Below are positions 19,626-58,879 of a DNA stretch of 64,000 nucleotides, in pieces. A program made the translations under genes and the position numbers. The first letter of the stretch is position 1. Each line of letters begins with the position of its first letter. Where the stretch lies: NCBI RefSeq assembly GCF_030684315.1, contig NC_081382.1:42083491-42147490 (forward strand), given 5' to 3'. Origin of the DNA: Stegostoma tigrinum. Lineage: Eukaryota. The notes under the pieces are model-generated. The model searched no databases. It saw only the letters and a program-made list of their open reading frames with translations, and was not told the origin of the DNA.

Positions 19626-20634
19626 GACCTGGGCCAAAAGGCCCAGGTTCAAATTCCCTGCCCCAGGCATGTACTATAATGAACAGGTTGACTAAAAGTA
19701 TCTGGAATTAGAGGAATGTGCATATTCATGATGTCCTGAGATCACAAAAAATGCAATATTACATGAGTTTCTTAATCTGTCTACAAGTTATCCACATTGA
19801 CTAAATATTGAAAACAGACACTCCTATACTAAGTTTAAAAAGTGATATTAAAGTTAGTATAAATTAAACTAAATATTAAAACACTGGCATGCAGCAAATT
19901 TAAGCATGGACGCATTTCAAGTAAAATATATATCTATAACATTGCCGAGCCAACTCTCATTGTTTGCAATATAAACAGAAAACAACGCTGAGCGGGTGAG
20001 TGCAGCACCTCGCCACGGAAAAACAAAATTAATATGTCTCAGCCACAATCCCTATTCTGAGCAAGTCAATTTATTGTCGAGTGGTGGTGGCTCGGCACAC
20101 AGCAAACCCAGTACTTAAACCATCTTTTTCAACAAGTGCTGCCCAACACAACACTTCCACAATCTTTTGACTTTAACCATTATTTGATGTACTTGACTAT
20201 GCAAAATGTAGTCGCTTCCTATTGTTTGATGGTTGCTTTTCTATCTACCACATCATAATTATACGACAGCATAGTCGATAATGTAACTATCGCCTGCTTC
20301 TCTCTTGGGCCATGCATAAGGTCTGCAAAAGGGTTACTGGACTCGAAACATTAACTCTGCTATTCCTCCACGGAAGCTGCCACAGCTGCCGACTTTCATC
20401 AGCAATTCCGTTTTTGTTGCATTAAAAAGAGTGTTTAGCCAACAACGACAATGCTGAACCACGATGACAATAATCGAGATTATATTGTCTAAATTACCAG
20501 AAAAGTTCGTTTCGCAAACTGCCGTGTGGAATTCCAACTTCAATGAGGAACGCACTTTTGCAAAAAACACGACAAAAATCGCACACGATTTGAAACGCAC
20601 TCGAACGTCCAACTTTTGTCACTGGCAAACTCAC

Positions 20635-20970
20635 AGTGTTGGGGTGGTCTATCCAGTTGACTTCAAACCCATCGAAGGCGTGGCTCTTGATGTTCTTCAT
20701 TAACTCCTTGCTCACCATGGGCTCCACCTGCCGGAGAAAGCGGGCCAGGCGCGGGGAATCGATCGACGGCTCCACACTCCCATCGAAGGCCGGCAGGTCT
20801 CGGCACTCGACCGGATCGGTCTGCGTGCCGCTTCTCGCGTTGCGTCGAATTTGCACCGAAGCTTCGGTGCGCCGAACTACCGCCGTTTGACAAACTGCGT
20901 CACGCAGCTCGGGAACCTTCCTCCAGCGCGAATCAATCGACACGGCCTCCCGGACCTCGTCCGTGAACAT
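20635..20970 (-). CDS. DYNC2I2: WDR34 coding exon 1
   Basis: ATG at 20970 (ACTATG), MFTDE..VCQT..SGTQT..LARFLRQVEPMVSKELMKNIKSHAFDGFEVNW; donor ACT|GTGAGT; 336 nt, phase 0. Confidence 0.92.
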
Positions 20971-21611: not shown

Positions 21612-21684
21612 ATGTCGGTCCCAGCGACAAAGATGAGTAAAAAGGAGGTGAACTCGAACCATGATGGAGCAGATGAGACCTCAG
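21612..21684 (+). CDS. SET: SET nuclear proto-oncogene (TAF-I beta type N-terminus), exon 1
   Basis: MSVPATKMSKKEVNSNHDGADETS; donor CAG|GTAATT, phase 1. Confidence 0.95.
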
Positions 21685-22032
21685 GTAATTTCTTTTCTTT
21701 TTGTGCACGGTTGGTTTTATTTTCGCCTGGTGGACAAATATGTTTTCGTGCTTGCGTTCGTGAAGGCCTCTCTGTTGAGTGTGTTCTGTATGTCTGTGTA
21801 TGTATATTGTGTATGTGTTGTGTATGTGCGCGGAATGGCGGCCCCACGCTCCCCCTCTCGGTCGGGCTGGAGAGGAGCTGAAAGGCAGCGCGGGAGGGTA
21901 ACTCCATTCACTCCGGCGCCATGTTTATGAAGCCACATAGCGAGAGTGTGTGTGAGTGAGAGCGGGGATAAAAAGAGAAAGAACAGAATCTCAGTACCAC
22001 CTCCTCCTCCCTCATTGTGTAAGGCGGCCGCC

Positions 22033-22084
22033 ATGATACCAGGAAAGAGGAATGGAGCCGCCGTGGCCTGCTCGTCGGCCCGAG
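22033..22084 (+). CDS. SET: Candidate alternative first coding exon of SET (MIPGKRNGAAVACSSAR)
   Basis: GCCGCCATG Kozak, 52 nt, donor GAG|GTGAGA in phase 1, matching exon 2. Confidence 0.5.
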
Positions 22085-23398
22085 GTGAGATGCCCTATTT
22101 CTTCTAACCTCCACCCCCACCCCCAGGCGTGTGTATACACAGACATTCTCTCTTTTCTGTCTCTCTTCCCCACCCCACCCCCAATCCTAGAACGGGTGAG
22201 GATAATATGCAAGGAGACAGGTCTGAACATGGGCTTCACGCGAGCAGCAACATCACTCGGTGGGTTAGAGTCGTCCGACTTGGGGAGAAGAGGCCTAACC
22301 ACGCGGCCTGGAGTTAAAGGGGTTATAGACAGCTTTCTACTTTCCTCTTTAAATCCTCGGGCCAGGCAATACTAGCTAAAAACCCGTTCTGTGCACGCGA
22401 TTTTTACGTGAGCCCATGTTTGGTTTTGAGCCTTTTTGATTAAATGCCTTCCCTTTTGAGAATCAGAATGACGTGACCGAGACTTTTTAAATAAACTGCT
22501 AAATCTGGAGCGGAAAAGTTAAATGCGCTTTCAGAGTTTAATTGGTGTGAAGGGAGAGGGAAAACTGAATGGAAAATAATTGCATGAGCTAAAATTGTGA
22601 AATCATCTTAAAATGAAAGATGTGCAACCAGCTTTCATTAATGCTGAATTTTGAAAAAGTTTGTTTTCGGTGCAATTCATTTCCAAGTGAAATGTCGGCA
22701 TTGAAAGTAACGACTTCCTTCGTGGAGGAACCACGCGGCTCATAATTTAGCAGGGGTTCATTCAACACAAAGGGAAGCAGTACTGAAACGTGGGTTGCTA
22801 GCGAATTATTGACATCTCCTACCATTAGATTCGCAATGTGATACGACGACACTTACAATTCTGAATAAATCTGGACGTGTTTGCAGATGATATTGTCTGT
22901 CTCCATTTTCATAGTGCAACTAATAGGTGAGCGGAAGGTGTTTTTTTTCTCCCCCTTGGATGGTTTAATGACAGATTTCGTTACATCTACTTTTGAGATG
23001 TGATTGTAGATTTTCCGCAGAATATTACTGAACAGTATGGTTAACTTGCAGAATGTAATTAGGAGCTCTTCCAAGCTTACCCGTTGCCTTTTTGAATATT
23101 TAATGAAATGTTTCGTCCTAAGGCCATCAAATCAATGCTAAAATCAAGAGTTCACAACTTTCTGTGTGCATCTTTTATATTTTGCCGGTTTGAGAGTAAG
23201 TAGGCATAGTTGCCTGTAAATTTCAGAAAACCCAAATTGGATCTGTCAGTTAATAATTTCAAATTAGAGTATTTGCTTGAGGGAGATGTATTTGAGTTGA
23301 AGGTCATGCTGCAGTTGTCATTCTTTAAAAGTGTTAGAAATAGTGTACATGCTGAGCACATCGTAAATTGTGATTTTTTTTGGTCAATTTTTTTACAG

Positions 23399-23456
23399 AA
23401 AAAGAGCAACAGGAAGCCATTGAACACATTGATGAAGTACAGAATGAAATAGACAG
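23399..23456 (+). CDS. SET: SET exon 2
   Basis: TTTACAG|AA..GACAG|GTAATG; EKEQQEAIEHIDEVQNEIDR. Confidence 0.96.
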
Positions 23457-24835
23457 GTAATGTGAAGGAAACAATGACTTTTGCATTTTAACCCCTGGGT
23501 GGTTGAGTTTTTCTACAAAACTCGTTTTATCTGAAACATTTTAAAATGAAGTTCAGCAATAATTTTGTTGCATTAGGCGGAAGTGGCCTTTAGTTTGAAC
23601 GTTTCCACTGTTTCACATGTTATGAGCCATAGTCTAATGTCCTGAAACTTGGCATACTGTACTTGATACTCAAAAGAAATTGAAGGTAAATTATGGTTTC
23701 GCAGAACAGAACGTTTATTAAGTGGGTTTTTTTGATAGTGCTGACATCCACAGATTAAAGCACTGCTTTACAATTGGTTGAGAATGTATATACATGTTAG
23801 TATTCAGAGATAGTAGGAACTGCCGATGCTGGAGAATCTGAGATAACAAGGTGTAGTGCTGGATGAAGACTGCATGCCAAGCAGCATTAGAGGATCAGGA
23901 AAGCTGATGTTTCAGGTCTGGATCCTTCTTTTCTACCAAAATCTTTTTTGGCAAGCTTTATCTCTTCGTAGATTCTACCTGGCTGTCTTCTCGGTGTTTA
24001 AATTTTAAGATCGAAGATAAAGTTTGGAGGATCACCCAAGTTATTTGAACTTACACGATGACTCGAAAAGCCAAAATTGTGCTGTCTTTTCTGCCAGGGA
24101 GGTATTTATAGTGCTCAAGTGGAGTTCAACAGGTGATGCATCACTGCTGCCCTTGGCTGCTATCTGTCCTGCACGTTCTCTTCTCTGACTGTTAATTTAG
24201 GTATATTCTTGTGATTTGTCGTTTGGATCGCTAGTGATATTTGAGTGTGTCTTGCTACGTTCCTACCAAGTCCAATAGGAGATGTGCCCGCAATAATACT
24301 CTGATGTGGTCTAACCAGGATTTTGCATAGTTGTAGCAGAGTTTCCTCCCCTTTTATTTATTTCTAGAAAAAAACTTCTCAATGTTTCTCACATATCTTT
24401 GGTTGAAGGATCGAAAGCAACCTAACTTCCTGCTGATATTAAGCCTTCACTTGAAATGGAATTATTTGATTTCCAAAAATCTCAATTGTATTGCATTTGA
24501 AAACTGGTTTGTTCTGACATTGGCATTCTAGGAAGGAAAAAAATCACTGGTCCCAGCCCGCTGGTCAAGTGCTGTCCTTTGTGGCCAGAGTCTTAAAGTA
24601 CAGTTGTAACCTCAAGTATATCTACTGGGGTTTGCAGAAATATTTTGAACCAATTAAGTTCTAATGGATAAAATGCTCTGCCTTTTCTATTTCTATCTTC
24701 CCTGCCCCTTGTATGCAGGAATGCTGTTGTCTTATTTAATCTTTTGTTTTATAGTGCAAAATTGAACTTTTTGTGTCAAACTTCTAACTTTTTTTGTTAA
24801 ACCCTGTTTTACAAGGCTGCGAATATTTTTTGTGA

Positions 24836-25102
<267 letters not shown>

Positions 25103-25371
25103 TAGGATTAAGTGAAATTTTCACGTGGAGCTGTCAGTTGAGAAAACATTACAGATGTGTGATTGTGTAAGAATTTTATGGAAAGGGATCTTGATCTTTG
25201 CTTTCAAGAGAATCTAGCGATGTGGACCGTGATCAGCTTCCAAGAAATTGAAGTGATTGTGTCTTAAATTTTAGATTATCTTTGGCATGGCTTTATTGCC
25301 ACAATATACTAGTTAAGTTTTGTGAACTTTCCTGAAATTGTAATGAGTACTAGTTGCATCTCCATTGATAA

Positions 25372-25402
25372 TGCCCCCTAGAGGCACGTGATGTTCACTG
25401 CA
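25372..25402 (-). promoter_or_regulatory. Candidate CTCF site with upstream motif in SET intron 3
   Basis: Minus strand TGCAGT-N12-CCTCTAGGGGGCA. Confidence 0.5.
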
Positions 25403-26805
25403 GTGCTGCTCAAAAGACATTACAACAAGTCGCAGCCTTGACAGTTTTGAAAGAATCAGTGTGTTTTTGTTTTTGAAATGTGTGCGGTGTTGGTCTCCCT
25501 GGATTCTTCTCTTTGTGGCCACAATTGTTAGTTTTCGCTGTAAATGGTTTTTGTGCTCCTAGAACCACCGCTGTTTTTTTTCCTTTGAAATGGCTGTAAC
25601 CCTTTTGGCTTATATACAGTAGGAATTACAAATATGGTCATTTGTGTTCTGCTGTAAATACTTGATTATATCCTGTTTTTACACATCAGATGGAATTTTA
25701 AATTCCTGTCTGTTAATAGCATAAGTTTCAACAAATGCTTTTACCCCCAAACTTTGTCATATGGGAAATGACTGAACAGAAATCCTGTAGAGAAACCCAC
25801 CTTGCTTGCAAACGTATACATTATTTCCTTTTTTGATTCGCACTTGCTAGGTTCTTTCATCGGGTTATATTCCGGAGACTCCAAATGTGTTTTTTTTGGG
25901 GGGGGTTGGGAGTGGTGTGGGATTTGCTGCTGCATTTAATCCTTCTATGCAACATTAACCTGGCATTCCAGAGCGGGACTGATTTTTTTTCCATTGGCCT
26001 TGATGTGTAGACCCTAGTTGTTATCCACCATACCTTGATTTTGAAATTGTAAACAGTAGGTTGCACTCTTGCCTAGAAAGAGTGGAGAATGTTTTTGTTT
26101 TTGTTTTTGTTTTTGTTTGCTGTGTTCTAAATGGGCTTTTGCAACTTAACTCTGTAAGTAGTGTAAGACAGTTTTATAGTAATTAAATGATGTAGTTTGA
26201 ATGTTAATGAGTAGCATTTGCAAAAGTGTGAATGAAATAAGTAACTTGTGGCACCTTTTCAGTGAAGTGTGATTTAGCTCTATTGTAACGTTGGGAGATG
26301 CCAGCCAATTAGCATGTAGCATGGTTCAACAAACAGCAGTGAAATAACCGAAAACATTGGTCCACCTAGTAAGACTTGTAATTATAACATGCAGCAGTGG
26401 TCATTGTATGTGTTTACATATTATTTTAGCAAATATTTCCAATGATGATCTCGTCAGCCTATTCACATGTTATTACACACCCCTGGAGCAGGTTGGAGTT
26501 GAACCCAGTTCGCTTGGCTCAGAGTAGGGATGCGAACCATCAACCTTCATTTCCATTATATCTTTAATTTTTTCAGCATGCCATTTGAATTTGGAGTCTC
26601 AGAAGTATATCACCTGATGAAAGAACTTAGCAAGTGGCTTCTTGTGTCTTTGTCTTTTAATGTTGTTCCTTTCCTTTCACATCCAACAATTATGGACAGC
26701 CCTAACATTTATTTGTGTACATTGCCTTACATGTCGTCCCTTCTTGATCAATACTGTCTGTGGACCTAATGCTGCAAAAGGGAGTTCATGCAGTACAACA
26801 GTTAG

Positions 26806-26988
<183 letters not shown>

Positions 26989-28321
26989 TAAAACCAAATT
27001 TGTTCAACAGTGCTGAAGTACTGATAAAAGACGAACAACTTATTTCATACCATCAAGCCTCTAATGTCTTAATTCACTGGAGTGATTTCCTCTTTTTTAG
27101 GCATAGTGTTTTAAGAAGGCTTTCAAGATTGTTTTCAGAAGTAACGTGCGGGTAGTTTAAAAACTGCCAACCTGTCTGAAGTTTAATAAACTGTATACTG
27201 ATATGCAAAGTACAAAGCAAAGACACAGGTTGTTTTTACAAGTTTGGTATCTGTCAATTTCCTAAATTCTCATGCAAAACTAATACACAAAGGCATTTAA
27301 AGTGGCATTTCTAATTTCCCACAATTTTTTTTTCCATCAGTAACTGATAGGGGGGATTGTTTTGCAGGCTTGTGGCCTTGTTTTAATTAGCCTCAAACAG
27401 CTACTGTAGAGCAACATTACTCCCGTTTATACTCAGTTGGATTAAACCCATGGTTTTTTGGTGGGAGGGGAACACTGACTGTTGAATCACTGAGTGACAT
27501 GTTTTCTCTTCATGCAACATGTGAATAAAATTCTAAGAAACTTCTTTAAAAGTTCCTCCATTCACCACGGTGATATTTAAGAACTATCAAAATTCAATAT
27601 TGGCCTATTTCATGTTGACCCAGAGTATCCAATTGTTCGCCCAAAGGAAATTTTTAAAATGTAGTGACTGCTCAAAAGTTGGAAAATATGCGAACCAACT
27701 TCCATTTGAGTTCAAGAATCCCCATTCCTCGGCAACATCCTGAAACCGGCAAATGGATATGCAAACAGCTGCCCCACAGGTAGCAGAGAAAAATAACTGG
27801 TTTGGTGTGTTTTGATTCTTGTAAAAGGATAACTGTTGAACAAGCTATTGGAAGAACTTCTTTGCTATTTACAGGCTGACGGGCCCCATTGTTAACTGAT
27901 TTATTCACGGAATGGTACCTGAAAGTGTAACACACTCCAAGTCAGCCTGCATTAGGTGCCAAACTCTAGTGTTGCATTACTCGTGAATAATGTATCTGGT
28001 CTGTTTGTTGTTTTTTCTTCAGTTCTCCAGTGTTTAGCAAATAATAGTCATGGAGCAATTTTGTTTCTGTCAGCATGTATAAATCAATATTGTTCAAGTA
28101 AAATGAAATAGGTGCCATTTGGTGAATGCTCCACTTTTTTTACTACACCATCCTCCTGTTACAACTCTAATATTAAATGCTATGCAACCACTTCTAACTA
28201 ATTGGAGTATCATGAATGGGTGTGGACAGACATGATTTTGTCAAATGCTTTGATTTCGCGGTAATTAAATATATCAAACGGCATTTCTTTTTCAGAAACA
28301 TTTCATTGTCTTGATCATTAG

Positions 28322-28510
<189 letters not shown>

Positions 28511-29844
28511 TAATCTCAAGGATGATTCTCTAAATTATTTTAAAGATACGTGATCTTGTAGATACGCTGAAAGAGAACTAGTTCTACATGGGTTAGAGCT
28601 GATGTCAAGCAACAGTTTCCACTAGGGGCAAGGGAAAACTGGAATTTTATTGTAAAAATGGGTCTGCAAATTATTTGAACATGTAACTCAGATTTTTGAT
28701 GGAGAAGGATAATTTTTAAGGAACCAGGCTGTCAGTCATTAATTGATGGAACAGGCTTCAAGGACTAAATGACATGCACTCAATTGGACTTGTGATTTGG
28801 TATTTCATTATTTCCTAACCTAGGTCAGAGAAGTGTGGCTGCATCCTGTGTTTGTTACAGTTCTTTTTAGAGCCTTGCTGTAAGGAGATGAGAGCAGTAC
28901 AGTGTGACTTTGAGCAGTTATTCCAAAACTTTTAAAATTGAACTAGATCTTACTTGGTAGGTGTATTTTAAGTGTTGACCAGCCTTGACTGCTTCTGTGT
29001 GGAATTTGAATTTGTCCAAATTTGAAGGCTTTTTTTTAAAATTTACCCGTTGGTCAATTCATGAATGAATTTGGAGTCTCAACTGGCAAATTTTCTGATC
29101 AAGTGTCCAGACCCGAAAACGTTAACTTTCCTGCTCCTAAGATGTTGCTTAGCCTGCTGTGTTCATCCAGCTCTACACTTTATCTCGTTGCTCAGTTAAC
29201 ACGTTGGTGTGTGGGAAAGATTTGAATTTATATCTTACTGATGTTCATTACAGTGTTGGTTTTTTGCCCTAATGTTTATTGCACTGTGCACTATTTTAGT
29301 TGCCAAATAATTTTGTGTTCCTTAGATTTAAACAGAAATCTTCCACTTCTTTGAATCTGCCAGGTACTGAACAATGCATCTCAGATATTTCGGTCCCTTA
29401 TCTGTTGAGTTCAGTTGGCTTTGCTGAGGCAATAATGGGGGGGGTCTACATTCAGTCCTGGGCTATAGAAGGGAATTACCTTTTAAAGTACTCCCCATGG
29501 TGAAGATTGTTTTTGGCTTAGCTACAGTCCTCGTTTTTGTTTTTTTTCTTTCTTTCAATTTTACTGTTTTTGGGGAAAGCCTAATATAAGGATATCTTGC
29601 CAAATTTTTCTTTGCAAAAATTGATTGAGCATATAGGTCGAATTAGTTAGTTTGATTTAACGTTAGAATTCTTCAAACTTTTCTCAACACTTGAATTCTG
29701 TGATGTAATGTTTGGTTGCATCTTTGTCTCCTTTGAAGGGAATTTTAATTTTCAAAATTGAACTTGATGCTGTAATGTAGATGCTTATGTACCTAAACAT
29801 TTTGTTGAGCGCTTACAATTACTTGGCATTTGTATTATTTCAAG

Positions 29845-30015
29845 GACCTGACAAAGCGCTCCAGCCAGTCGCAGACTAAAGCAGGCAGGAAGCGACAGCA
29901 TGAAGAACCAGAAAGTTTCTTCACCTGGTTTACTGATCACTCGGATGCAGGTGCTGATGAGCTGGGAGAGGTTATCAAAGATGACATCTGGCCGAACCCA
30001 CTGCAATACTATTTG
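29845..30015 (+). CDS. SET: SET exon 6
   Basis: TTTCAAG|GAC..TTG|GTGAGT; [38 protein letters not shown]. Confidence 0.96.
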
Positions 30016-30575
30016 GTGAGTGTTCTTGAGTCCTTCTATGCAAACATACGACTTTACATCTGATTTGGCAAAAGGGGGTATGGGCATTCAGCTTCACCAG
30101 TGATCTCTTTTTGTGGGAAACACAATATTTCTTTGCACACAAAGGAGTGGATATGTGGGTATTATAAATGGCTCCAAGCTGTTGAGCAGACAGGCTGAAA
30201 TCCCAGAAGTGGGTGAATTAATTATTTTCCCTTTTTTTTGGGGAGGTTTTATCGCATTATAATTATGGTGGCTGGAGTGATACATTAATTTTAAGACCAA
30301 ATTTCTTGATGTACTGTAATGATTTTATATACATCAGATTTGCTGGATCTTCACTAGTTTGGCATTCTGCAGCGGTTTTGGAGGATTCTTAATCTCCCGT
30401 GTGCAGCAGCCTGTTGCTTTATACTCTAATAATTCCTTGTCATTTTAAATAATTCATGTTGTCCCTGGTGTTTGAAAAACCATGTGACTGTTACACACAA
30501 GTTCAAGCATAACGTTGAATTTTAACGTAAATGCACTCCTCAACTAAAAGCGTTGTTATTGTGTTGCCTTGTCAG

Positions 30576-30731
30576 GTTCCTGATATGGAAGATGAAGAAG
30601 GTGATGGCGAGGAGGAGGATGAAGATGAGGAGGAAGAAGAAGGATTGGAGGATATTGATGAAGAAGGAGATGAGGATGAAGAGGGAGAAGAGGAGGATGA
30701 GGAAGAGGAGGAGGAAGGTGAAGAAGCTGAG
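30576..30731 (+). CDS. SET: SET exon 7 (acidic tail), GC donor
   Basis: GTCAG|GTT..GAG|GCAAGT; [13 protein letters not shown], 156 nt. Confidence 0.9.
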
Positions 30732-31314
30732 GCAAGTGCTTTCATTTTTAAACTCCCAATCTAGACATTTATACAGAAACATTAAAATGCTTTGGCCACA
30801 CTTTGTCTTTATTCCCCAAATGGGGAATTCCTGATCTCTGTGCGTAAATAAGAGTAATTACTGTGATCCCATTGAATGGTGGAGCAGATTTGATGGGCTG
30901 ACATCCTTCTGTGTCTTGTTGACAGTTGCCTCAAATGTTGAATCTGTTCAAATATCTTGTTGTTATTCTTTGCTTTGCAAGTCTGACTTTTCCAAAACGA
31001 GATTTGGCCACCAGAGTAACTTTTTGTAGGATAGAGGAGCTGTCTTGCATAGCCATGAAAGGGGAAGATCATCATTTTGCTTAAATGTAAAATAGGAAGG
31101 TGCTTTAAGATTCTCTCAATATGCTTTGTTTTCATTAAATTTCAAAATGTGCAGAAGAAACCAGAAATTTAACTCTTCAAAGCAAAAGCTTTTGCACCCG
31201 TATTACACATAGCTGTTAATAGTTACAGAGGAGAGTCTAATAATTCTGATTTCTATTATTTTATTTACATGTAGCTATCTTGTACTAACCTTTGTTTTCC
31301 TGTATTGTTTGTAG

Positions 31315-35603: not shown

Positions 35604-35758
35604 TCAACTCCGGTAGGACTTGGGTACCATGAGAAGTGTTGCAGCAAAATTCTCCTGGAGGAGTCTGTCTACAATCAGTGCAACAAATGTCTCCTCTGAT
35701 TCCTCAAACTCTTCATCTGTAAGATGCTGAGGCCAGATGCTGGGCTGAAATGACCAAC
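35604..35758 (-). CDS. Secreted cereblon-like (CULT domain) protein, exon 2 (not in ORF track)
   Basis: TTTTTCCAACAG|GT TGG..AGT TGA; GWSFQPSIWPQHLTDEEFEESEETFVALIVDRLLQENFAATLLMVPKSYRS*; completes the HLGWxF motif in the correct phase. Confidence 0.88.
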
Positions 35759-35984
35759 CTGTTGGAAAAAGTTCACAAACTTAACACTAGATAACTAAGC
35801 TAGCAACATCACATGTAACCTATTATGAAACATTTGTGCCAAGTTGCTTTATAGGTGTGTAATCAATAAAAGTGAGCTAAAAGGAAGAACTATTAAAGTT
35901 TGCCAACAGCCCAATCAAATAGTTTTGAGCAGTATTAAAGTGTTTAGGAAATGAAGTTCCTGAGCTTAGGCTTAGAACACTGAG

Positions 35985-37190
35985 TCAGAAATCACATGAT
36001 ACCAGGTTACAATCCAACAGGTTTATTTGAAAACGCAAGCTTTCAAAGCCTTGCTCCTCCTCCAGGTGTTAGTGAAGTGGTATCAGACAGAATTTAAGTA
36101 AAAGATCCAAGGGTCACATCACTGATGCAAATGTATTAAACAAACCTGAAGATTTGTATGTAAATCTCAAAATTCTTTTCAAGTCGCTGCCCTGAGAGAA
36201 CTAAATGTTTTATCAATGTAAAGATAAGGTGACATTTTAGGTCAGACAATGCTTGTTAGATTCTAAACAAAGCCTCATACCTATGTTTGGTCTGGAGTCA
36301 GGCTGCTTTTATTGCTAAATTAGGAATTTATAAAAAAAACACATGGACTGACCGACTGTCTATAAATTGTGTGCTTTTTGAACAAAATAGAATCTTTCTG
36401 CAAATACAAATTCACCCCATAGATTTTCATGTGTGCTTGCACAGGGGCGGGAGAGGGCACATGCATATGAAAGTGCAGGTATGAGAGAACGAACAAACGT
36501 GCCTGCATGCATGAGGGCAAGAGAGTGTAAGTACTGTATAGTGTGGTGGGGTCACCTGTAGTGCAACATGAACCCAAGATCCCAGTTGAGGCAATTCTCA
36601 TGGGAACCAAACTTGGCTAATAGCCTCTGCTCGGCAACTCTGCGTTGTTGTGTATCCTCAAGTCCACCTTAGAGGACATTTACCCAAGATCCAAGGCTGT
36701 ATATCCTTGACCACTGAAGCATTCCCCCAGGGGGTGGGGGGAAAACATCCCTGACTGGCAATTGTTACGCAATGTCATTCGTCTGCCGTATTCATAGCAT
36801 CTGCATGGTTTCACCAATATATAATGCCTTGAGATAGACAATGTTGGCCAAGTCACATGAGTATCAGCCATGCACATGGTGGGTGTTGTTCCCACATGCG
36901 ATGGTACAGTTCATGTTGAAGATCTGATGTGTCTTGCAGAGGGTGCCATTACAGGGTTGTATAGTGTTGTGGTTAATGTTGTCTTGAAGACTGGGTGGTT
37001 TGCTGTGAACAGTGGCCTCTTTAAGGTTTGGTGGTTGTTTGAGAGTGAGAAGTGGAGGCATACAGAAGATCTTGGGGAGGTGCTCATCGTCACTGATAAT
37101 GTGTCAAAGTCTGCAAAGAACATAGCATAGATTCTCCGCTCCCAGGAAATACTGGACAAGCACTGAAGTTGCAGCTGCCAAAAGTGGGAG
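35985..37190 (-). mobile_element. Degenerate Penelope-like element (same family as 62085-63632)
   Basis: KQPPNLK..QPC..LCKTHQIF GIY-YIG region; the terminus AATAAACCTGTTGGATTGTAACCTGGT..TGTGATTT resembles the ends of the 62-63 kb copy. Confidence 0.7.
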
Positions 37191-37734
37191 GGAATACTTA
37201 GATCTGAAAGTTGAAGCAGGTTACAGAAATAGGCTGGAGGTATTTGAACAGGAGAATGCAAATTTTAAGAAAGGAGACACTGATAGCCTGAAAACCAAGG
37301 CCATAAGTCCAATAAGGTATATAGGAGAACATTGTGGACAAGTGTGATGTGGTGTCAGGTGTAGGCAATAGAATTTTGGATGAGCTCAAGTTCAGATCAT
37401 CAAAGTTTGAGGTCTGCCAGCAGAGTATTGGAATAATAAAAATCTAGAAGAAAAAGTTATGCATTTGGCAGACAGAAGTAGACATTTGACGTAGAAGTCG
37501 ACAGTCTTGCCAACGGAAAGGATACAGGATCAGTACTCAGCTCAAAATCAAATGAAGCAAAGAGATTGCCTCACAGGATACTGGTCCGGAAAGGGATAGA
37601 ATAGGAAACGGCTTGTGATGGGAACTTGACGCAGGAACTCTGTAGTATATTCTAAAAGTTCAACGCTGAGATACAGCTCACCTCCCTGATTTCCTGTTAA
37701 CCAAAAATCTGTTTTGGACTTTTCACATAGATGC

Positions 37735-38300
37735 GATGGTCGAGACGGCACAACAATGCTTCCTCTTCCTCAGGCAACTTAGAAAATTTGGCATGTCCAT
37801 AAGGACTCTCACCAACTTCTACAAAGGCACCCGAGAAAGCATACCATCCAGGTGCACAATAGCCTGGTACGGCAACTGCTCTGCCCGGGATTGTTAGGAA
37901 CTACAGAAGGTTGTGTGTACAGCCCAGACCCGCGGGAAGCCAACCTTCTGTCCATGGACTTCATTTACACCTTTTGTTGCACAGCAAGTCTGCCAACATT
38001 AAAGACCCCTCCCACTTCAGTAAACCTCTCCTACAACCTTTTCTGCCAGACAGAAGTTGCAGAAGCTTGAACACATGCACTAGCAGGTTCAAGAACAGCT
38101 TCTTCTTTGCCATTACTAGACTGATGAATGGACTCTAACTTAAAATAACGTTTACCTTGTTACTGTTGATCTTGCTTCACGCACCTCCCGTGCAGAGTAA
38201 TCTGTATAGCTCACTCTGTCTAAGCACCCTATGATCTGTCTGTACTGCTCATATACAAAGCTTTTCACTATACATAGAAACATGTGACTACAATAAATCA
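37735..38300 (+). mobile_element. Rex1/Babar-like LINE 3' fragment
   Basis: Same family as 17230-17810 (FLRQLRKFG, SRFKNSFF, shared 3' UTR). Confidence 0.6.
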
Positions 38301-39044
38301 ATTTCTTTCTTTAAAATCAAAAAAAACTTTAAAATGCAGCTTTGAAATTTTCAAAAACAACATTGTTATAAGATAGTACTCTAGATTTCATAAGATTACA
38401 CTAATTTTAAAAGGTGTGCCTTCTCATTCTTGGCTGTTCCCCACCCACCAGAGTTATTTCACCAGCCACCCTTTTAGAACTTCTAATCATCTTTTAAATA
38501 ACCAGAAGCTTAGCTGGACCAGCCACAAATACTTCAGTTACAAAGAGGGAATTCTGTATGAAGTGACTCACCCAACCTTTTCATCACCTGAAAAGCACAA
38601 ATAAGAAATCTGTTGTAATGTCATAAAATATAGGAGCAAAATCAGACCATTCAGCCCATCGAGACTACACCACTATTTTATCATAGCTGATATTTTCCTC
38701 AACCCCATCCTCCTGCCTTCTCCCTATAACCCTTGATCCCCTTACTAATCAAGAATCCATCTATCTGCTTTAAATACACACAATGACTTGGCCTCCACAG
38801 CTTTCTGCAGCAGTGATTTTCACAGATTGACCACCCTCTGAACAAATCCCTCCTCCTCTCACTTCTAAAGAGTCATCCTTTCACCCTGAAGCTGTGTCCC
38901 CAGGTCTTCGACTCTACTTCTAGAAGGAACATCTTCTCCACGTCCACCCTATCCAGGTCTCATTTTCTGTAAGTTTCGATCAGGTCCCCCCTTCATCCTT
39001 TTAAACTCCAACCAGTACAGTCAGAGTTGTCAACTATTAACAAA

Positions 39045-40905
39045 GACATAGAAACAAAGAAACCTACAGCACAGGAACAGGCCCTTCGGCCCTCTAAGCC
39101 TGCGCCGATCAAGATCCTCTGTCTAACCTGTCATCTATTTTCTAACAGTCTGTGTCCATTTGCTTCCTGCGCATCCATGTACCTGTCCAAATATATCTTA
39201 AAAGACGCTAACGTGTCTGCGTCTACCACCTCCGCTGGCAACGCGTTCCGGGCACCCACCACCCTCTGTGTAAAGAACTTTCCATGCATATCTCCCTTAA
39301 ACTTTCCTCTTCTCACTTTGAACTCATGACCCCTAGGAATTGAGTCCCCCACTCTGGGAAAAAGCTTCTTGCTATCCACCCTATCTATACTCCTCATGAT
39401 TTTGTAGACCTCAATCAGGTTCTCCCCTCAATCTCCATCTTTCTAATGAAAATAATCCTAATCTATTCGACCTCTCTTCATAGCTAGCACCCTCCATACC
39501 AGGCAACATCCTGGTGAAACCTCCTCTGCACCCTCTCCAAAGCATCCACATCCTTTTGGTAATGTGGCGACCAGAACTGTACACAGTACTCCAAATGTGG
39601 CCGAACCAAAGTCCTATACAACTGCAACATGGCCTGCCAACTCTTGTACTCAATACTCCACCCAATGAAGGAAAGCATGCCATATGCCTTCTTGACCACC
39701 CTATTGACCTGCGTTGTCACCTTCAGGGAACAATGGACCTGAACACCCAGATCTCTCTGTTCATCAATTTTCCCTAGGACTTTTTCATTTACTGTATAGT
39801 TCGCCCTTGAATTTGATCTTCCAAAATGCATCACCTCACATTTGCCCGAATTGAACTCCATCTGCCATTTATCTGCCCAACTCTCCAGTCTATCCATATT
39901 CTGCTGTAATTTCTGACAGTCCCCTTCACTATCAGCTACTCCACCAATTTTAGTGTCATCAGCAAACTTGCTGATCAGACCACCTACACCTTCCTCCAGA
40001 TCATTTACATATATCACAAACAACAGTGGTCCCAGCACAGATCCCTGTAGAACACCACTGGTGACAGGTCTCCAATTTGAGAAACTCCCTTCTACTACTA
40101 CCCTCTGTCTCCTGTTGCCCAGCCAGTTTTTTATCCACCTAGCTAGCATACCCTGGACCCCATGTGACTTCACTTTCTCCATCAGCCTGCCATGGGAAAC
40201 CTTATCAAACACCTTACTGAAGTCCATGTATATGACATCTACAGCCTTTCCCTCATCAATCAACTTTGTCACGTCCTCAAAGAATTCTATGAAGTTGGTA
40301 AGACATGACCTTCCCTGTACAAAACCATGTTGCCTATCACTGATAAGCCCATTTTCTGCCAAATGGGAATAGATCCTATCCCTCAGTATCTTCTCCAGTA
40401 GCTTCCCTACCACTGACGTCAGGCTCACTGGTCGATAATTACCTGGATTATCCTTGCTGCCCTTCTTAAACAAGGGGACAACATTAGCAAGTCTCCAGTC
40501 CTCTGGGACCTTACCCGTGTCTAAGGACACTGCAAAGATATCTGTTAGGGCCCCGGCTGTTTCCTCTCTCGCTTCCCTCAGTAACCCGGGATAGATCCCA
40601 TCCGAACCTGGGGACTTGTCCACCTTAATATCTTTTAGGATACCTAACACTTCCTCCTTCCTTATGTCAACTTGACCTAGATTAAGCAAACATCTATCCC
40701 TAACCTCAACATCCGTCATGTCCCTCTCCTTGGTGAATACCGATGCAAAGTACTCGTTAAGAATGTCACCCATTTTCTCTGACTCAGCGCATAACTTTCC
40801 TTCTTTGTCCTTAAGCGGGCCAATCCTTTCTCTGGTTACCCTCTTGCTCTTTATATATGAATAAAAGGCTTTGGGATTTTCCTTAACCATGTTTGCCAGC
40901 AATAT
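39045..40905 (-). mobile_element. 5'-truncated CR1 LINE with nearly intact reverse transcriptase
   Basis: 472-aa ORF with PGNYRPVSLTS, QHGFV.GRSCLTN, QGSVLGPLLF and KFADDTK; continues through two frameshifts (39411-39683, 39131-39397) to a TTTCTATG-type tail; nested in an older CR1 (38625-39020 and 40930-42240). Confidence 0.92.
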
Positions 40906-41373
40906 CTCTCATGATGAGCTCTTAAATCAGTTTTTTTTGTGAACCTCCTCTGGAACCCTTCTAATTCCTTCCAAAGTTCAGTCTAAAGCTGCACACAGTA
41001 TTCCAAATGTGGCATGACCAGAGCCTTATAGAGCCTCAGCAGTACGTCTGTAGGCGTCTTGAAATGAGTGCTAACATTACACTTACCTTCCTAACTGCCA
41101 ACTGAACCTGGAGGTTAACCTGAAAGGTATCCCAAATTAGGGCTCCTAAGTTCCTTAGTGCTTCAAATTTCCAAACCCTCTCCCTATTTAGAAAATAGTC
41201 TACACTTCTTTTTCTACCAAAGTGTATAACTTCACTTTCTGACATTGTATTCCATCTGCCACTTCTTTGCCCACGCTCCTAGCCTGTCCAACTACTTCTG
41301 CAGCCACCCTGCTTCTTCAACATTACCTGTCCCTCTACCTAACTTTGTCATCTGTAAACTTAGCTTACCCTCA

Positions 41374-41783
41374 TTGATAACAAAGGAGCTGGATGAACAC
41401 AGCAGGCCAAGCAGCATCTTAGGAGCACAAAAGCTGACGGTTCGGGCCTAGACCCTTCATCAGAAAAGGGGGATGGGGAGAGGATTCTGAAATAAATAAG
41501 GGGGGAGGCGGATCGAAGATGGATAGAGAAGAAGATAGGTGGAGAGGGGACAGACAAGTTAAAGGGGCAGGGATGGAGCCTGTAGAGATGAGTATAGGTG
41601 GAGAGGTAGGGAGGGGATAAGTCAGTCAGGGGAGGACGGACAGGTCAAGGGGCCTGGGTGAGGTTAGTAGGCAGGAAATGGAGGCCCGAAACGTCAGCTT
41701 TTGATGCTGCTTGGCCTGCTGTGTTCGTCCAGCTCCACACCTTGTTATCTCGGATTCTCCAGCATCTGCAGTTCCCATTATTT
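41374..41783. mobile_element. Penelope-derived insertion with inverted termini
   Basis: About 70-bp inverted repeat of the family tail; flanked by CTTAGCTTACCCTCA (41359-41373) and CTTAGTTTACCCTCA (41784-41798). Confidence 0.8.
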
Positions 41784-42269
41784 CTTAGTTTACCCTCAAT
41801 TCTTTTGTCCAGATCATTAATGTATCATGTAAATAGCTGTGGTCCCAACACTGATCTCTGCAAAACTCTGCTAATTACAGACTGCCATCCTGAAAAAGAC
41901 CCCTTTATGCCCACTCACTGCCTTCTACCAGTCAATCCTCTATCCTAACCTTGTCTCTAACACCATGGGCTCTTATTTTATTTAGCTATCTCCTTCAGAA
42001 TTCTGGAGTTACTCCATCTGGTCTGGGTGATTTATCCACTTTCAAAACTTCCAGCATCCCCATCACCATCTCCTTAGTGATGGCCACTACACTCACCTGA
42101 CACTCGAAGTTCCGGTATGCTGCTGACGTCTTCCAGTGTGAAGAGTGACGCAAACTACCTATTCAGTTCCTCCATCATTTCTTAGTTCCCCATTACTACC
42201 TCGTCAGCCTCAATTTCCAATAATGCAATGCCCACTCTTGCATCTTTATAAATGTTCTTGAGAATAATG

Positions 42270-43140
42270 GAAGCATGGTTAGTAATTTTGCGGATGACAC
42301 CAAAATTGGTGGTATAGTGGACATGAGGAAGGTTATCTAAGAGTACAACAAGATCTTGATCAACTGGGCCAACAGGCCAAGAAGAGGCAGACTGAGTTCA
42401 GATAAATGTGAGGTAGCACATTTTGGTAAGACAGACATGGGCAGAACTTGCAGACTTGGGAAGCATTGTTGAATAGAGAGACCTACAGGTTCGGGTACAT
42501 ACTTTTTTGAAAGTGGCATTACAGGTAGACAGGGTAGCAAGAAAGAAATGTGGCATGCTTGCCTTCAATGGTTAGAGCATTGAGTATATGAGCTGGGATG
42601 TTGTGTTGCAGTTGTACAGAGTATTGGTGAGGCCACTTTGGGAGTACTGTGTACTGGTCACCTGCAATAGGAAGTATATTATTGAAATGAAAGAGTGCAG
42701 AAAAGACTTACAAGGATGTTATGGGGTCTAGAGATTTCAGTTATAAAGAGAGGCTGGGACTTCTTTCTTTGGAGCATAGGAGTTTGAGGGTTGACTAAGT
42801 TGAGGCGTACAAAATGAGGGGCACAGATAAAGTAAATTACAAAGGTGTTTTTCCCTAGTTCAAAACTCGAGGTCACAATTTTCAGGTGAGAGGAGAACAG
42901 GACCAGAGAGGCAACTTTTTTCACACACAAGGTGGTTCATATGTGGAATGAACTGCCAGAAGAAGTGACAGATGCAAGTACAGTTACAACATTTGAAAGA
43001 CATTTGGACAGGTACACGAATAGGAAAAGTTTAGAGGGATGGGGGCCAAATGCAAGCAGGTGCGACTAATTTAGTTTAGGAAATCTGGTCAGCACGGACA
43101 AGTTGGACCAAAGGATCTGTTTCTGTGCTGTATGATTCAA
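42270..43140 (+). mobile_element. Degenerate CR1 3' portion
   Basis: NFADDTKIGGIVD, LYRVLVRP, WNELPE and FERHLD motifs with indels. Confidence 0.75.
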
Positions 43141-43916
43141 TAAATGTTTTCTTACCTTTTACAGATTAAAAAAACTTGCAATCTTCTTTTATATTACTAG
43201 CTAGTTTAACCTCAGACTTCATCTCCCACTATTGCTTTTCCAGTTTCGTCTGCCAGCTTTTTTAATCTTCTGGCTTCCCATTAGCCTTTACAACTTTTTC
43301 TTTTGTGCTATCCCTGATTTCCCCAAGCTTGTACCCTCCACTTGTACAAACCGAACGAAGAGCCCCATTCACTCCCTCCACCACTGATGTACAGTGGCAA
43401 TGTACACCATTTGCAAGATGCACTGCAGCTCTTCCCAAACTCCTGATCCTCACAACATGGAAGGAATGGCAGTGGACATATAGGAACACCACACCCCCTG
43501 CAAGTTCCCTTCAAAGATTCGGAACAATATTGTCCTTCGTTAACCATTACTGAAGGAACATTCTCCAACTCCCTGCTTAACTGTGGAGGTTTGCACATGG
43601 TAGAAGAGGCTGTCAAGGACAATTATGCCAGTCTCGCCAGATACATGCACACCTTAATAAATTAAGAATAATTACCGTATAGGCAAAGCACACTGTGGAG
43701 GCAATTCGGCCCTTCGTGTCAGCACTAGCCCTCTAAAAAGCAATTCTTCCCCTCTCACTCCCCTAGTTCTTCCTCACAATCTTTAAACTTGCAAATCAAA
43801 ATAGATCAGAACTTAGTTTTATCCAAACGATGCTCACAACTGATCGATTATTTGGAGGTTCGAAAGGATCACCAAAAAGCGGTAAGATGTCGCTAATGAA
43901 ACGAACATTGACAAAC

Positions 43917-44286
43917 CTAAGTGGTTGTGGCACCTGGGACACGTTGCCACTGTCCAAGAGTGTCCAGGGAACCAGGAAAACTGCTCCTCCGGCGGCCAGT
44001 GCCTGTGGACAGCGGCTTTCTTGAAAGTGAGTACCTGGAAGCGAAGTCCCTGGGGGTTCTGGAAAAGTTGCACCGGGACCCTGCGCTCGCCGATCACCGT
44101 GTCGTTACGCTGGGCTAAAGCCAGGGCGCTGGCCACGAACTTGAGGTCCCGACTGGCGGCCACCTCGAAGCCGCACGACCTGCACAGCAAGAGCTCATCT
44201 CGGGAACTTGCCTCCTCCTGGCCGGCATTGTAGCCGCTCACGGCAGGCAGCCACACCAAGAGCAGAGTCCCCAGTATCCGCCACAT
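43917..44286 (-). CDS. Secreted cereblon-like (CULT domain) protein, exon 1
   Basis: ATG 44286 (AGAATG); hydrophobic signal MWRILGTLLLVWLPAVSG; CRSC, NPQG, FSWFPGHSW, CPRC and HLG; donor TTAG|GTTTGT, phase 1. Confidence 0.88.
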
Positions 44287-44714: not shown

Positions 44715-45515
44715 CAACAACCCCCAGCACCACTTGCCCCCACACCTCCTCCTTCACCCTCATCCCAGGCTCCAAGATGACTTTCCACATCATGTAGATG
44801 TTCACCTGCACATCTGCCAATGTGGTATACTGCATCCGCTGTATGCGTTGTGGCTTCCTCTACATTGGGGAAACCAAGCGGAGGCTTGGGGACGGCTTTG
44901 CAGAACACCTCCGCTCAGTTCACAAATAACGACTGCACTTCTCTGTGGCAAACCATTTCAACTCCCCCTCCCATTCCTTAGACAACATGTCCATCCTGGG
45001 GCTCCTGCAGTGCCATAATGATGCCACCCACGGGTTGCAGGAACAGCAACTCATATTCCACTTGGGAACCCTGCAGCCCAATGGTATCAATGTGGATTTC
45101 ACCAGCTTCAAAATCTCCCCCTCCCCCACTGCATCCCAAAAGCAGCCCAGCTTGTCCCCACCTCCGTACCTGTTCTTCCCACCTCCTCCCACCTCAAGCT
45201 GCACCTCCATTTCCTACCTACTAACCTCATCCCGCCCCCTTGACCTGTCCATCCTCCCCGGACTGACCTGTCCCCTCCGTACCTCCCCACCTATACTCTC
45301 CTCTCCACCTATCTTCTCCTCTATCCATCTTCGATCCACCTCCCCCCACTCTCCCTATTTACTTCAGAATCCTCTCCCCATCCCCCTTTTCTGATGAAGG
45401 GTCTAGGCCCAAAACGTCAGCTTTTGTGCTCCTCAGATGCTGCTTGGCCTGCTGTGTTCATCCAGCTCCACGCTTTTGTTATCTCGGATTCTCCAGCATC
45501 TGCAGTTCCCATTAC
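44715..45515 (+). mobile_element. Penelope-like element 3' part (GIY-YIG plus terminal repeat)
   Basis: FTCTSANVVYCIRCMRCGFLYIGETKRRLGDGFAEHL; hammerhead core at 45391 with GAAA changed to AAAA. Confidence 0.85.
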
Positions 45516-46335
45516 CTCCTCCAAAGCTCTCCCTTGTTTCCTAGGATCAAGGACAAATCTCTTTGGGGAGCAGAAAAGCAATAGCTTATGCTTCTAAGGC
45601 ATCTTTCCCTGAGGGTTGATGAAATAACTGCACAGAGGCCAGTATCCCATCACCAAGTCACCCTTTATTTACTTGTGCACAGTACACTGGCTGTGACCAG
45701 CCAGCTCACAGTCAGTTCCCTGAACTAGCAGGGGTTTGTGATCTGTTACTACGACAAATTCCCATCCATAAACATACTGGTGGAACCTTCTCACACCAAA
45801 GATGACCAGCAAACCTTCCTTCTCTATATGTGCATATTTGGGTTTGGCATTAGACAAAGACTGGGAAGCATATACTATCGGGCATTCCTCTCCATTAGGC
45901 CACGGGTGAGCCAACGCTATTCCAGCTCCGTTCGTGGAGGCATTGCAAGTCAACACTACTCTCGCTTCGGATCATAATGGGCCAACACGTTAGATGCTGA
46001 TAGCTGCTTTTCACTTCACTAAACACTACTTCTTGGCTACATGGCCAATCCCATGGCTGACCATTTTTTAATAGCAGGTGTAAGGCTGTCAAGACGGGGG
46101 CCAGCTTACATATAAATTTTCTGTCATAATTCACCAACCTGAGGAAAGACCTAAGTTCCAGTAGAAATGCGGGAGCTGGGGCCTCTTTGATCACCCTCAC
46201 TTTATCCTCCAATCAGTGTAACCTGGTTTTGTGGAGTCTGTAACCCAAATAGGTCATCTGGGGTGCCTGAAACACATTTTTCCCTTCTAAGGTGCATACC
46301 TGCCTGGGAGAAATGCTTAAACACTACATCAAATT

Positions 46336-46898
46336 ACCCTCCTCCCTCCGGACCAACCTCAGGGAATCTCTCTCCAACTGCAACTCTCTTGTAATACCTA
46401 TCTTGTTTTCTCTCCATCTTCGGACCGCCTCCCCCACTCTCCCTATTTATTCCGGTTCCCTCTCCCAATCCCCCTCTCTGATGAAGGGTCTAGGCCCGAA
46501 AAGTCAGCTTTTGTGCTTCTGAGATGCTGCTTGGCCTGCTGTGTTCATCCAGCTCCACACTTTGTTATCTTGGATTCTCCAGCATCTGCAGTTCCCATTA
46601 TCACTGATGCAATTTTAACCCCACTGCGAAGCCTCTTCCAGGGATGCCTAACCTGAAGAAGTTACCCTCCTCCCTCCGGACCAACCTCAGGGAATCTCTC
46701 TCCCACTGCAACTCTCTTGTAATACCTATCTTGTTCTCGCTCCATCTTCAGTCTGCCTCCCCTTTTCTCCCTATTTATTCCGGTTCCCTCTCCCCATCCC
46801 CATCTCTGATGAAGGGTCTAGGCCCGAAACGTCAGCTTTTGTGCTTCTGAGATGCTGCTTGGCCTGCTGTGTTCATCCAGCTCCACACTTTGTTATCT
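46336..46898 (+). repeat. Tandem 328-bp Penelope terminal-repeat dimer inside the Gypsy RT
   Basis: TTACCCTCCTCCCTCCGGACCAACC at 46334 and 46662; hammerhead cores at 46478 and 46806; flanked by ATCAAATT (46328, 46899). Confidence 0.85.
46806..46833 (+). ncRNA. Minimal type I hammerhead ribozyme core (intact)
   Basis: CTGATGA-A-GGGT-CTAG-GCCC-GAAAC-GTC: conserved core, stem II, palindromic ACGT stem III and GUC cleavage triplet. Confidence 0.75.
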
Positions 46899-54599: not shown

Positions 54600-54627
54600 G
54601 ACGTTTCGGGCCTAGACCCTTCATCAG
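54600..54627 (-). ncRNA. Minimal type I hammerhead core (intact)
   Basis: Reverse complement reads CTGATGAAGGGTCTAGGCCCGAAACGTC. Confidence 0.75.
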
Positions 54628-57765: not shown

Positions 57766-58066
57766 AGCAATTCCTACCAGCTGTTGATCAACCAGAGGCT
57801 GGACCTGGAAGAGGGAGCTGATCTCTTGGATCCAGATATGCAACAAAAACTTGATGAAGTAAAAGATCTGATTCGCCGCGAAATACAAAAGGAGCTAAAA
57901 ATCAAAGAGGGAACGGAGAACTTGCGCAAAGTGACAACGGATAAGAAAAATCTGGCACATGTGGAAAGCATTTTGAAAACCTCAAATCGCAAATTGAAAC
58001 GTCTGCATTGGGAACTTCAGGAGCTGAATGCACGAATTATGATCACAGACAGGGACAGTCAGGGAG
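57766..58066 (+). CDS. PKN3: PKN family kinase exon 2 (HR1a Rho-binding domain)
   Basis: TCTAG|AGC..GGAG|GTGAGT; QQKLDEVKDLIRREIQKELKIKEGTENLRKVTTDKK..LQELNA. The PKN3 paralog call rests on synteny with SET and WDR34. Confidence 0.85.
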
Positions 58067-58879
58067 GTGAGTGCAACTTGCAGCTGAATGTTGGATAAGA
58101 AGACCTAAGCCTTTATGTGGAGCTAAAACATTAGGTATATGACTCTACAAAAACTGATTTTTTTAAAAAAATTAGAATGTAGCTTAGTATTGAAATGTTC
58201 ATTTTTCAAGCTCCTTTCCACAGTCTTAGTGATAATTTCTTGATTCACCTGTTGATCTTTCTGGGGCTAGGGAAATAAATTTTACTCTTTCACTAGTTCA
58301 CAGGCTAGATTCATCACCCAGTTTGCTACATATATGTGGTAAGTACTTTGAGCTTGGCCAATGAAGATGCCACAGTAAGTGTCTCAGATCCTGAACCAGA
58401 AGCAAAATAAAATTATCAAGAATTCCTGCTCCTGATCACTTTTTGAACCTCTTGCTGAAAAGTGCACACGCAAGCAGGTTTAACTATTTAAGTCCCAAGT
58501 TTGTTTCTCCATGTTAAAAACTGCTGACTTTAGGATCTCACAGCTCACTTGAATAATTGACGGAAGTACCTACAGTATATGAAAATTATACGCAGCAATG
58601 TTGCGAGAGGAAATTTTAAAAAGGACACGGTAAATGAACCAACCGTATCTAATTGTGAAGAAGAACCCAATGACCAGATAGACTTATTGGAGATTAGGTA
58701 ACTGTGATGGTAGAAGAATTGCTTTTGTTGAATTGAGAAATGTTTGCAAACACTTATCTTGTATATGGTTCTTTAAGGTGATTTCATGAAATTGTAGAAT
58801 CCCTACAGTGTGGAAAGAGGCCATTCAGCCCATTGAGTTTGTACCAAACCTCCAAAAAGCATCCCACCTGGCTTTAGTA

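Follow-up and report, generated by a model that had tools for sequence, protein, structure and literature searches.

A two-exon gene for a predicted secreted, stand-alone CULT protein with a complete thalidomide-type pocket in the shark Stegostoma tigrinum

Introduction

Cereblon (CRBN), the substrate receptor of CRL4-DDB1, and the bacterial stand-alone protein MsCI4 (PDB 4V2Y) share the CULT domain, a thalidomide-binding fold with a cage of three tryptophans, W79, W85 and W99 of MsCI4 being the equivalents of human W380, W386 and W400 (PMC8900816, extract; sources so marked were accessible in part). MsCI4 binds thalidomide and uridine (PMC4287342; PMC8900816, extract) and also uracil (PMC4287342). 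A further group, group II of Lupas, Zhu and Korycinski (2015), comprises secreted animal proteins in which a signal sequence is followed by a lone CULT domain with the three tryptophans, two CxxC motifs and an NPxG motif; it extends to placozoans, insects and nematodes, its vertebrate range being given as 'not occurring beyond fishes' (PMC4287342). Here we describe a member of this group encoded on the minus strand of a 64,000-nucleotide stretch of the Stegostoma tigrinum genome (contig NC_081382.1, positions 42,083,491 to 42,147,490; hereafter the window); in predicted architecture it does not differ from the group. The gene was picked out by an initial annotation which stated that secreted CULT-only proteins had been noted bioinformatically without an assigned function, as the 2015 paper bears out (PMC4287342). 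Both the gene and the family are already known, since the locus carries an annotation and the family received its name in 2015. No functional study of the zebrafish gene or of the secreted group beyond the 2015 paper was found in the literature searched, which was mostly without subscription journals.

The gene and its transcripts

Joining the two coding exons (Table 1) across GT-AG splice sites keeps the frame and yields a protein of 174 residues and a stop codon, with a predicted mass of about 18 kDa following signal cleavage. No in-frame ATG lies between the start codon of exon 1 and the nearest upstream stop. The third cage tryptophan, W125, is the first whole codon of exon 2 (35756-35754), so that the pocket depends on the splice. 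Exon 1 is CpG-rich, with an observed/expected ratio of 0.80 against 0.27 in the intron.

The two halves of the orthologs land exactly on the two exons in tblastn searches. The spliced protein is identical to the Chiloscyllium punctatum RefSeq protein at 159 of 174 positions, with 144 identical residues in Heptranchias and 112 in sturgeon, and exon 2 (46, 45 and 37 of 51 positions respectively) is conserved on a par with exon 1. Exon 1 alone as query retrieved 12 relatives among 28 candidates, the named ones being from sharks, rays, sturgeon and gar, and full-length orthologs are known from sharks through teleosts and the coelacanth. Matches named si:ch211-51h9.7, together with a vertebrate clade supported at 96 by the Shimodaira-Hasegawa-like approximate likelihood ratio test (SH-aLRT), support orthology with the fish members; on these sequence comparisons the gene is the ortholog of zebrafish si:ch211-51h9.7.

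An internal splice donor within exon 1 would give a frame-shifted isoform of 111 residues that lacks the cage. The NCBI entry for isoform X2 of S. tigrinum si:ch211-51h9.7 (P0011) is the exact product of the donor at 44035 and the shared acceptor at 35758, and the locus is therefore already annotated. The existence of this annotated form is a point in favour of the exon join being an artefact or the gene a pseudogene, for which the chances are close to nil given the intact frame, the canonical splice sites and the full-length orthologs from sharks to teleosts and coelacanth, some of which, being entries on contigs of about 1-2 kb, are probably spliced transcripts. A fish-like protein (P0113) seems to shift to a similar tail at the same point as P0011, and the shared tail possibly marks a truncated isoform that has been conserved, or else an error repeated between gene models. 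The two-exon join proposed at the outset, with its intact reading frame, is confirmed by the splice sites and by orthologs spanning both exons, and the locus almost certainly holds a normal, conserved gene of two exons whose product belongs to the secreted animal CULT family and has a beta-tent fold and a full tri-tryptophan pocket.

The CULT domain and its pocket

The Chiloscyllium ortholog (P0003, 91% identical) was modelled from an alignment of 81 sequences with a predicted local distance difference test (pLDDT) score of 88, only the C-terminal 15 residues being poorly modelled. The top structural matches of this model were MsCI4 (Z 15.6, root-mean-square deviation (rmsd) 2.5, 104 aligned residues) and human cereblon (Z 15.2, rmsd 2.7, 106 aligned), and Foldseek agrees (MsCI4 E 5e-9). 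Atlas look-alikes fell into chordate and arthropod clusters, one of them labelled 'putative conserved secreted protein'. Weaker matches were to Mis18 (Z 10.0), YPEL5 (9.4) and MsrB1 (9.0). The Yippee/YPEL and Mis18 proteins share the beta-tent fold but differ in their lower scores (Z 9.2-10.0), 14-16% identity and a different predicted cage, with cereblon-type chains ranking higher. The Pfam library gave no dedicated CULT model: the two exon products (P0001, P0002) and P0003 had no match, including to PF03226 (Yippee-Mis18), to which weak matches were obtained in 61 of 81 family members. The structural matches cover residues 31-162 of the ortholog model and no further domain was found, so that the predicted stand-alone CULT domain of beta-tent fold is upheld. 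In keeping with the proposed lack of LON and DDB1-binding regions, the leader passes straight into the CULT domain and PDB matches were only to the C-terminal domain of cereblon. Cereblon in turn has none of the leader, the 15-residue hairpin insertion with its sequon, the acidic loop and the C-terminal helix and tail of the shark protein.

Every motif expected from the first reading of the locus (two CxxC, NPxG, an NDT sequon and all three cage tryptophans) was located in the spliced protein. W105, W111 and W125, which align with MsCI4 W79, W85 and W99, occur respectively in 117, 118 and 118 of the 118 fish-type homologs and in 95, 100 and 97 of the 100 distant long-hairpin ones; for these counts 24 partial sequences were dropped, and about 29 of the 118 fish-type rows were assigned by similarity. 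The cage region is the best-conserved part of the protein (0.80). The NPxG hairpin, which supports the first cage tryptophan (PMC4449219, extract), is intact in the shark protein, and the pocket shares with cereblon a Phe at its base.

The initial annotation had drawn attention to a Phe in place of the cereblon His that precedes SWFPG. The change is present (F103) but is not a meaningful difference, and it was rejected as a marker of changed specificity: MsCI4 likewise has Phe at the position of human His378 (Phe77), and the position is variable in distant homologs. Indeed MsCI4, like the shark protein, has Phe at both positions that are His in cereblon. As Phe77 contacts the ligand through its backbone only (PMC8900816, extract) and MsCI4 binds ligand, the substitution does not predict a loss of binding. 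A further difference from MsCI4 lies at its Tyr101, which is Phe127 in the shark protein. By analogy with the structures of cereblon and MsCI4, the protein is likely to be non-catalytic and to bind cyclic-imide-like rings in vitro as they do.

Leader, hairpin sequon and export

The sequence of the N-terminal leader is poorly conserved (0.16). Among homologs whose N-terminus is complete, the leader is nevertheless hydrophobic in 108 of 114 of fish type and in 74 of 80 distant ones, compared with one of seven short-hairpin forms. Between the first CxxC and the NPxG Asn the family has a spacing of 39 residues, against 22-24 in cereblon and the bacterial single-domain forms, and the additional hairpin residues carry an N-x-S/T sequon in 118 of 118 fish-type and 86 of 100 distant homologs but in none of 14 short-hairpin forms. 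The long spacing and the spliced animal gene set the shark protein apart from the bacterial forms, which carry no sequon. In the same 100 distant proteins five other stretches had a sequon in 0-7 cases, and shuffling the segment gave a mean of 17.7 and a maximum of 30. The hydrophobic leader and the conserved sequon favour the signal peptide of about 18 residues claimed initially, which stays a prediction, and together are good indirect evidence of passage through the endoplasmic reticulum (ER).

An alternative is that the protein is not exported and acts as a cytosolic or membrane-anchored decoy or modulator of cereblon. A four-cysteine zinc site fits the cytosol. The entry PabSP126, which we take to be the sand-fly salivary member cited by Lupas and colleagues, also lends this some weight. 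PabSP126 is represented by two expressed sequence tags, is not flagged as a detected protein and has no predicted sequon (PMC2714351, extract). A hydrophobic leader of varying sequence combined with a positionally fixed sequon that is missing in 14 of 14 short-hairpin forms is hard to reconcile with this alternative, as is a best internal 19-mer hydrophobicity of only 1.25 in the spliced protein, and we regard it as very unlikely.

Taxonomic range and decay in tetrapods

The profile search gave 210 matches, and the 120 listed include sharks, rays, ray-finned fishes, the coelacanth and one frog, Ascaphus truei (P0019). A second search, with 3 matches in 531 candidates, missed even fish orthologs; it added the frog Discoglossus pictus (P0271) and identified a copy in the turtle Platysternon megacephalum (P0028). 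In a tree built on 76 selected rows and 94 core columns that excluded the hairpin insertion, and in which 39 of 73 inner branches were open, the three tetrapod copies group together (SH-aLRT 90) inside the vertebrate clade. All three keep the cage tryptophans, while the NPxG Asn is replaced by Asp or Glu and three other pocket positions are changed. Leader, sequon and first CxxC are all missing from the turtle copy, possibly a pseudogene. Its record name, 'urocortin-3-like', was set aside, as the sequence is that of a CULT ortholog and inspection of the open reading frame lists by eye showed no urocortin-like frame.

The Ascaphus, Discoglossus and damaged Platysternon copies make the published fish-only limit too narrow. 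No bird or mammal was present among the matches listed (120 of 210, with a second search that missed even fish orthologs), which does not prove absence. The proposal of a loss in mammals understates the pattern: the named matches are confined to fishes, two frogs and a damaged turtle copy, and the loss looks more like decay across tetrapods than a mammalian event.

Many orthologs in NCBI and UniRef carry the label 'protein cereblon', and as a result fish expression studies may mix this gene with true CRBN. Two apparent tandem-CULT proteins, P0015 with 22 stretches and P0061 with 4, were rejected as cereblon-like sequences with repeated C-terminal tails that are probably assembly or prediction errors. 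Other long matches (CARD, SYF2, RAM) were single cases that by their look are gene-model fusions or low-complexity matches and were not used. P0071, which also has a CARD match at its N-terminus, and P0142 each seem to contain two CULT-like domains; both are single cases.

An oomycete-type relative fused to an ER lectin

A wide search gave 1653 matches at E 0.001, and one of the 150 representatives listed (P0148) combines a leader and a CULT domain with an MRH domain inserted within the CULT domain at about residues 199-344. Among lectins in the PDB it matched OS-9 (1.2e-11), an ER quality-control lectin of yeast type (2.1e-8), a homolog of OS-9, and ERLEC1; neither glucosidase II nor a mannose-6-phosphate receptor was among the lectin matches listed. 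The Gln, Arg, Glu and Tyr that bind mannose appear to be retained in the alignment. The Atlas look-alike cluster of P0148 has 80 members, mostly Oomycota. In the alignment the insert precedes the last CULT strand, at the loop that is acidic in vertebrates, with a conserved Phe aligned at 370. Like the shark protein, P0148 has a leader and a 39-residue hairpin and groups with the animal proteins (SH-aLRT 82), and it differs in the MRH domain, an altered cage and the lack of a hairpin sequon. The shark protein itself has no counterpart of the MRH domain found in the OS-9/XTP3-B lectins.

OS-9-type lectins pass damaged glycoproteins to the SEL1L-HRD1 ligase. The fusion of such a lectin to an imide-reading pocket suggests, by analogy, that exported CULT domains may act in luminal quality control, a lead and not a result. 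The oomycete group had been described merely as bearing 'a carbohydrate-binding domain' (PMC4287342). The earlier suggestion that the shark protein works independently of ubiquitin ligases is unsupported, and the fusion in P0148 hints at the opposite.

Possible functions

The pocket has C-terminal cyclic imides as its physiological ligands (bioRxiv 10.64898/2026.08.28.747849, extract; PMC11725857, extract), and these form non-enzymatically at pH 7.4 (PMC11725857, extract). The reading we tentatively favour, as possible and short of probable, is that the protein recognises C-terminal cyclic-imide damage in the lumen or outside the cell, without catalysis, and feeds glycoprotein disposal, in which case it would not be ligase-independent. 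The protein would enter the ER, be N-glycosylated on the added hairpin and serve as a luminal or extracellular counterpart of the substrate-reading domain of cereblon, binding C-terminal aspartimide or glutarimide ends of damaged secretory-pathway proteins that are beyond the reach of cytosolic cereblon. For disposal, clients would then pass to a partner docked by the beta7-beta8 acidic loop or the conserved tail, the OS-9/XTP3-B lectin arm of ER-associated degradation (ERAD) being the most plausible candidate. A broader version, which we consider distinctly unlikely, makes the long-hairpin CULT proteins an ancient 'luminal cereblon' of eukaryotes that hands secretory-pathway proteins with C-terminal cyclic-imide damage to the OS-9/SEL1L/HRD1 ligase. 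The lectin would be fused in oomycetes and separate in animals, and this quality-control branch would survive in fishes, have been remodelled in frogs and have decayed in amniotes.

Several points weigh against a damage reader. The structural model is of the Chiloscyllium ortholog instead of the spliced protein of the window. A KDEL-type retrieval signal was found in none of the 118 fish-type homologs and in one of the 100 distant ones, and the shark protein ends without it, so that ER residence would need a partner; in an oxidising lumen a four-cysteine zinc site may form disulfides that alter the pocket. The pocket is promiscuous (uracil, steroids, acetyl groups), and amniotes appear to do without the protein despite having long-lived secreted proteins. 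The accessible part of PMC11725857 makes no mention of extracellular or secreted substrates, and the literature searched yielded no binding, localisation, expression or phenotype data. The CULT-MRH fusion is a single representative from a distant lineage, its first cage tryptophan is Phe and its NPxG is altered, and its grouping with animals, on 94 columns, is neither shown nor rejected. Of 211 confirmed loci of bacterial stand-alone CULT genes 80 were kept, among which each family of neighbours recurred at 7 loci at most and none pointed to protein repair, the neighbours checked being DsrC, Cas6-like, a SLOG protein, UbiA, VIT1, an ECF sigma factor, ABC, a kinase and CorA. At L007, L014, L016, L018, L027, L052 and L055 a gammaproteobacterial CULT gene lies near dsrC-like and Cas6-like genes, a lineage-limited synteny.

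The binding of uracil and uridine by MsCI4 (PMC4287342) also suits a secreted carrier or buffer of a small molecule that fits the cage, the cargo being uridine/uracil or else a 3-keto steroid, for instance cortisone or testosterone. Cortisone is comparable to thalidomide in binding the human domain via the cage tryptophans (bioRxiv 10.64898/2026.08.28.747849, extract), all of which are present here, and teleosts have no characterised corticosteroid-binding globulin where tetrapods do (PMC12571615, extract), which mirrors the range of the gene. The lack of a retention signal in the family would likewise suit a carrier. Affinities in the thalidomide range are micromolar, far above usual hormone levels, and this counts against such a role. 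Placozoans, insects and nematodes are not known to use vertebrate corticosteroids, which speaks against a steroid carrier in particular. The family reaches all three groups (PMC4287342), most data indicate no specific cortisol-binding protein in teleost plasma (PMC12571615, extract), and a carrier leaves the lectin fusion of P0148 unexplained; on balance we find this role rather doubtful.

In vertebrates, surfaces away from the pocket are also very strongly conserved. The vertebrate HWPA segment has its W and its P in 116 of 116 sequences each, and the P[KR]x[YF] tail motif finishes two residues short of the stop in 105 of the 118 fish-type homologs and in 22 of the 100 that are distant. This poorly modelled tail could be a partner motif, a sorting motif or a mimic of the cereblon N-terminal belt. 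Such conservation would be expected of an extracellular protein-binding or pattern-recognition module that grips a side chain or modification of a specific partner in its cage; the HWPA segment, the hairpin glycan and the C-terminal tail would form the interface, and cyclic imides would be incidental. The cradle accommodates different ligands in other beta-tent proteins, the tetrapod copies retain the three tryptophans with a changed rim, and the sand-fly member was reported from salivary gland (PMC4287342). The three tryptophans, NPxG and the aromatic base are kept from bacteria to sharks, suggesting the same chemistry throughout, and no partner is known, so that this module too strikes us as rather doubtful.

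Neighbouring genes and other features

The initial annotation placed the gene between SET and PKN3. SET and a PKN-type gene were both found by domain matches, and the kinase is presumably PKN3, over other PKN genes, on synteny, human SET and PKN3 being adjacent. A CpG island at 20400-21800 (observed/expected 1.16) holds the starts of WDR34 and SET, which lie head to head about 640 nt apart. Beyond the retroelement remnant in the intron, repeat-derived frames at about 44900-49550, 52350-52800, 54430-55310 and 62530-63030 look Penelope-type or LINE-like by eye, with no Pfam match among those tested.

Table 1. Features of the si:ch211-51h9.7 gene and its surroundings, numbered from the first nucleotide of the window; residue numbers are those of the spliced protein
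Feature	Position	Strand	Remarks
Coding exon 1	43917..44286	-	370 nt; residues 1-123 + 1 nt; GT donor at end; ortholog tblastn
Coding exon 2	35604..35758	-	155 nt; preceded by pyrimidine-rich AG acceptor
Intron	35759..43916	-	8158 nt, phase 1, GT-AG
Probable signal peptide, about residues 1-18	44233..44286	-	hydrophobic 11-mer, Kyte-Doolittle 2.19; cleavage site judged by eye
First CxxC (C35, C38)	44173..44184	-	both Cys in 118/118 fish-type homologs
Family-specific hairpin insertion, about 15 residues	44074..44124	-	predicted N-glycosylation sequon at 44106-44098, residues 61-63
NPxG sensor-loop motif (N77), residues 77-80	44047..44058	-	Asn in 118/118 fish-type homologs
Alternative internal splice donor	44034..44035	-	111-residue frame-shifted isoform without cage
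Cage segment F103, W105, W111, residues 103-111	43954..43980	-	MsCI4 F77, W79, W85; human H378, W380, W386
Second CxxC (C116, C119), residues 116-119	43930..43941	-	
Acidic loop (beta7-beta8)	35723-35691	-	within exon 2
C-terminal helix and tail, conserved	35657-35607	-	tail motif P[KR]x[YF] in 108/118 fish-type homologs
Candidate polyadenylation signal AATAAA	35570..35575	-	29 nt beyond stop codon
Retroelement remnant in intron	40908-39487	-	474-residue open reverse-transcriptase frame; RVT_1 E 1.8e-34
WDR34/DYNC2I2 first exon, head to head with SET	20626..20970	-	E 1.1e-17
SET, approximate coding span	21612..30764	+	NAP matches on four exons; SET E 1e-34
PKN kinase first HR1 exon, open frame	57766..58095	+	HR1 E 4.8e-16; PKN E 4.7e-18

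Significance

Three points were not found in the papers searched: the sequon on the hairpin, the copies in tetrapods, and the identity of the oomycete domain as an ERAD-type lectin. They add to the 2015 description, in which neither the hairpin sequon nor the ER-lectin type is mentioned (PMC4287342). Few natural proteins other than cereblon have an intact thalidomide pocket, and the shark protein is one of them, in what is predicted to be a compartment closed to cereblon. If it binds imides, a second binder has gone unexamined in thalidomide studies of fish and invertebrates. Were it to feed ERAD, cyclic-imide damage would be policed in the secretory pathway, with a handle for degrading luminal proteins. 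Should the family be an old luminal counterpart of cereblon, a thalidomide-type ligand could recruit the protein for the degradation of luminal proteins, or strike it as a further target in experiments on zebrafish and invertebrates. Together the copies from frogs and the turtle form a natural series on the alteration and loss of the pocket, and with a small soluble protein and a zebrafish gene to hand the functional question is directly testable.

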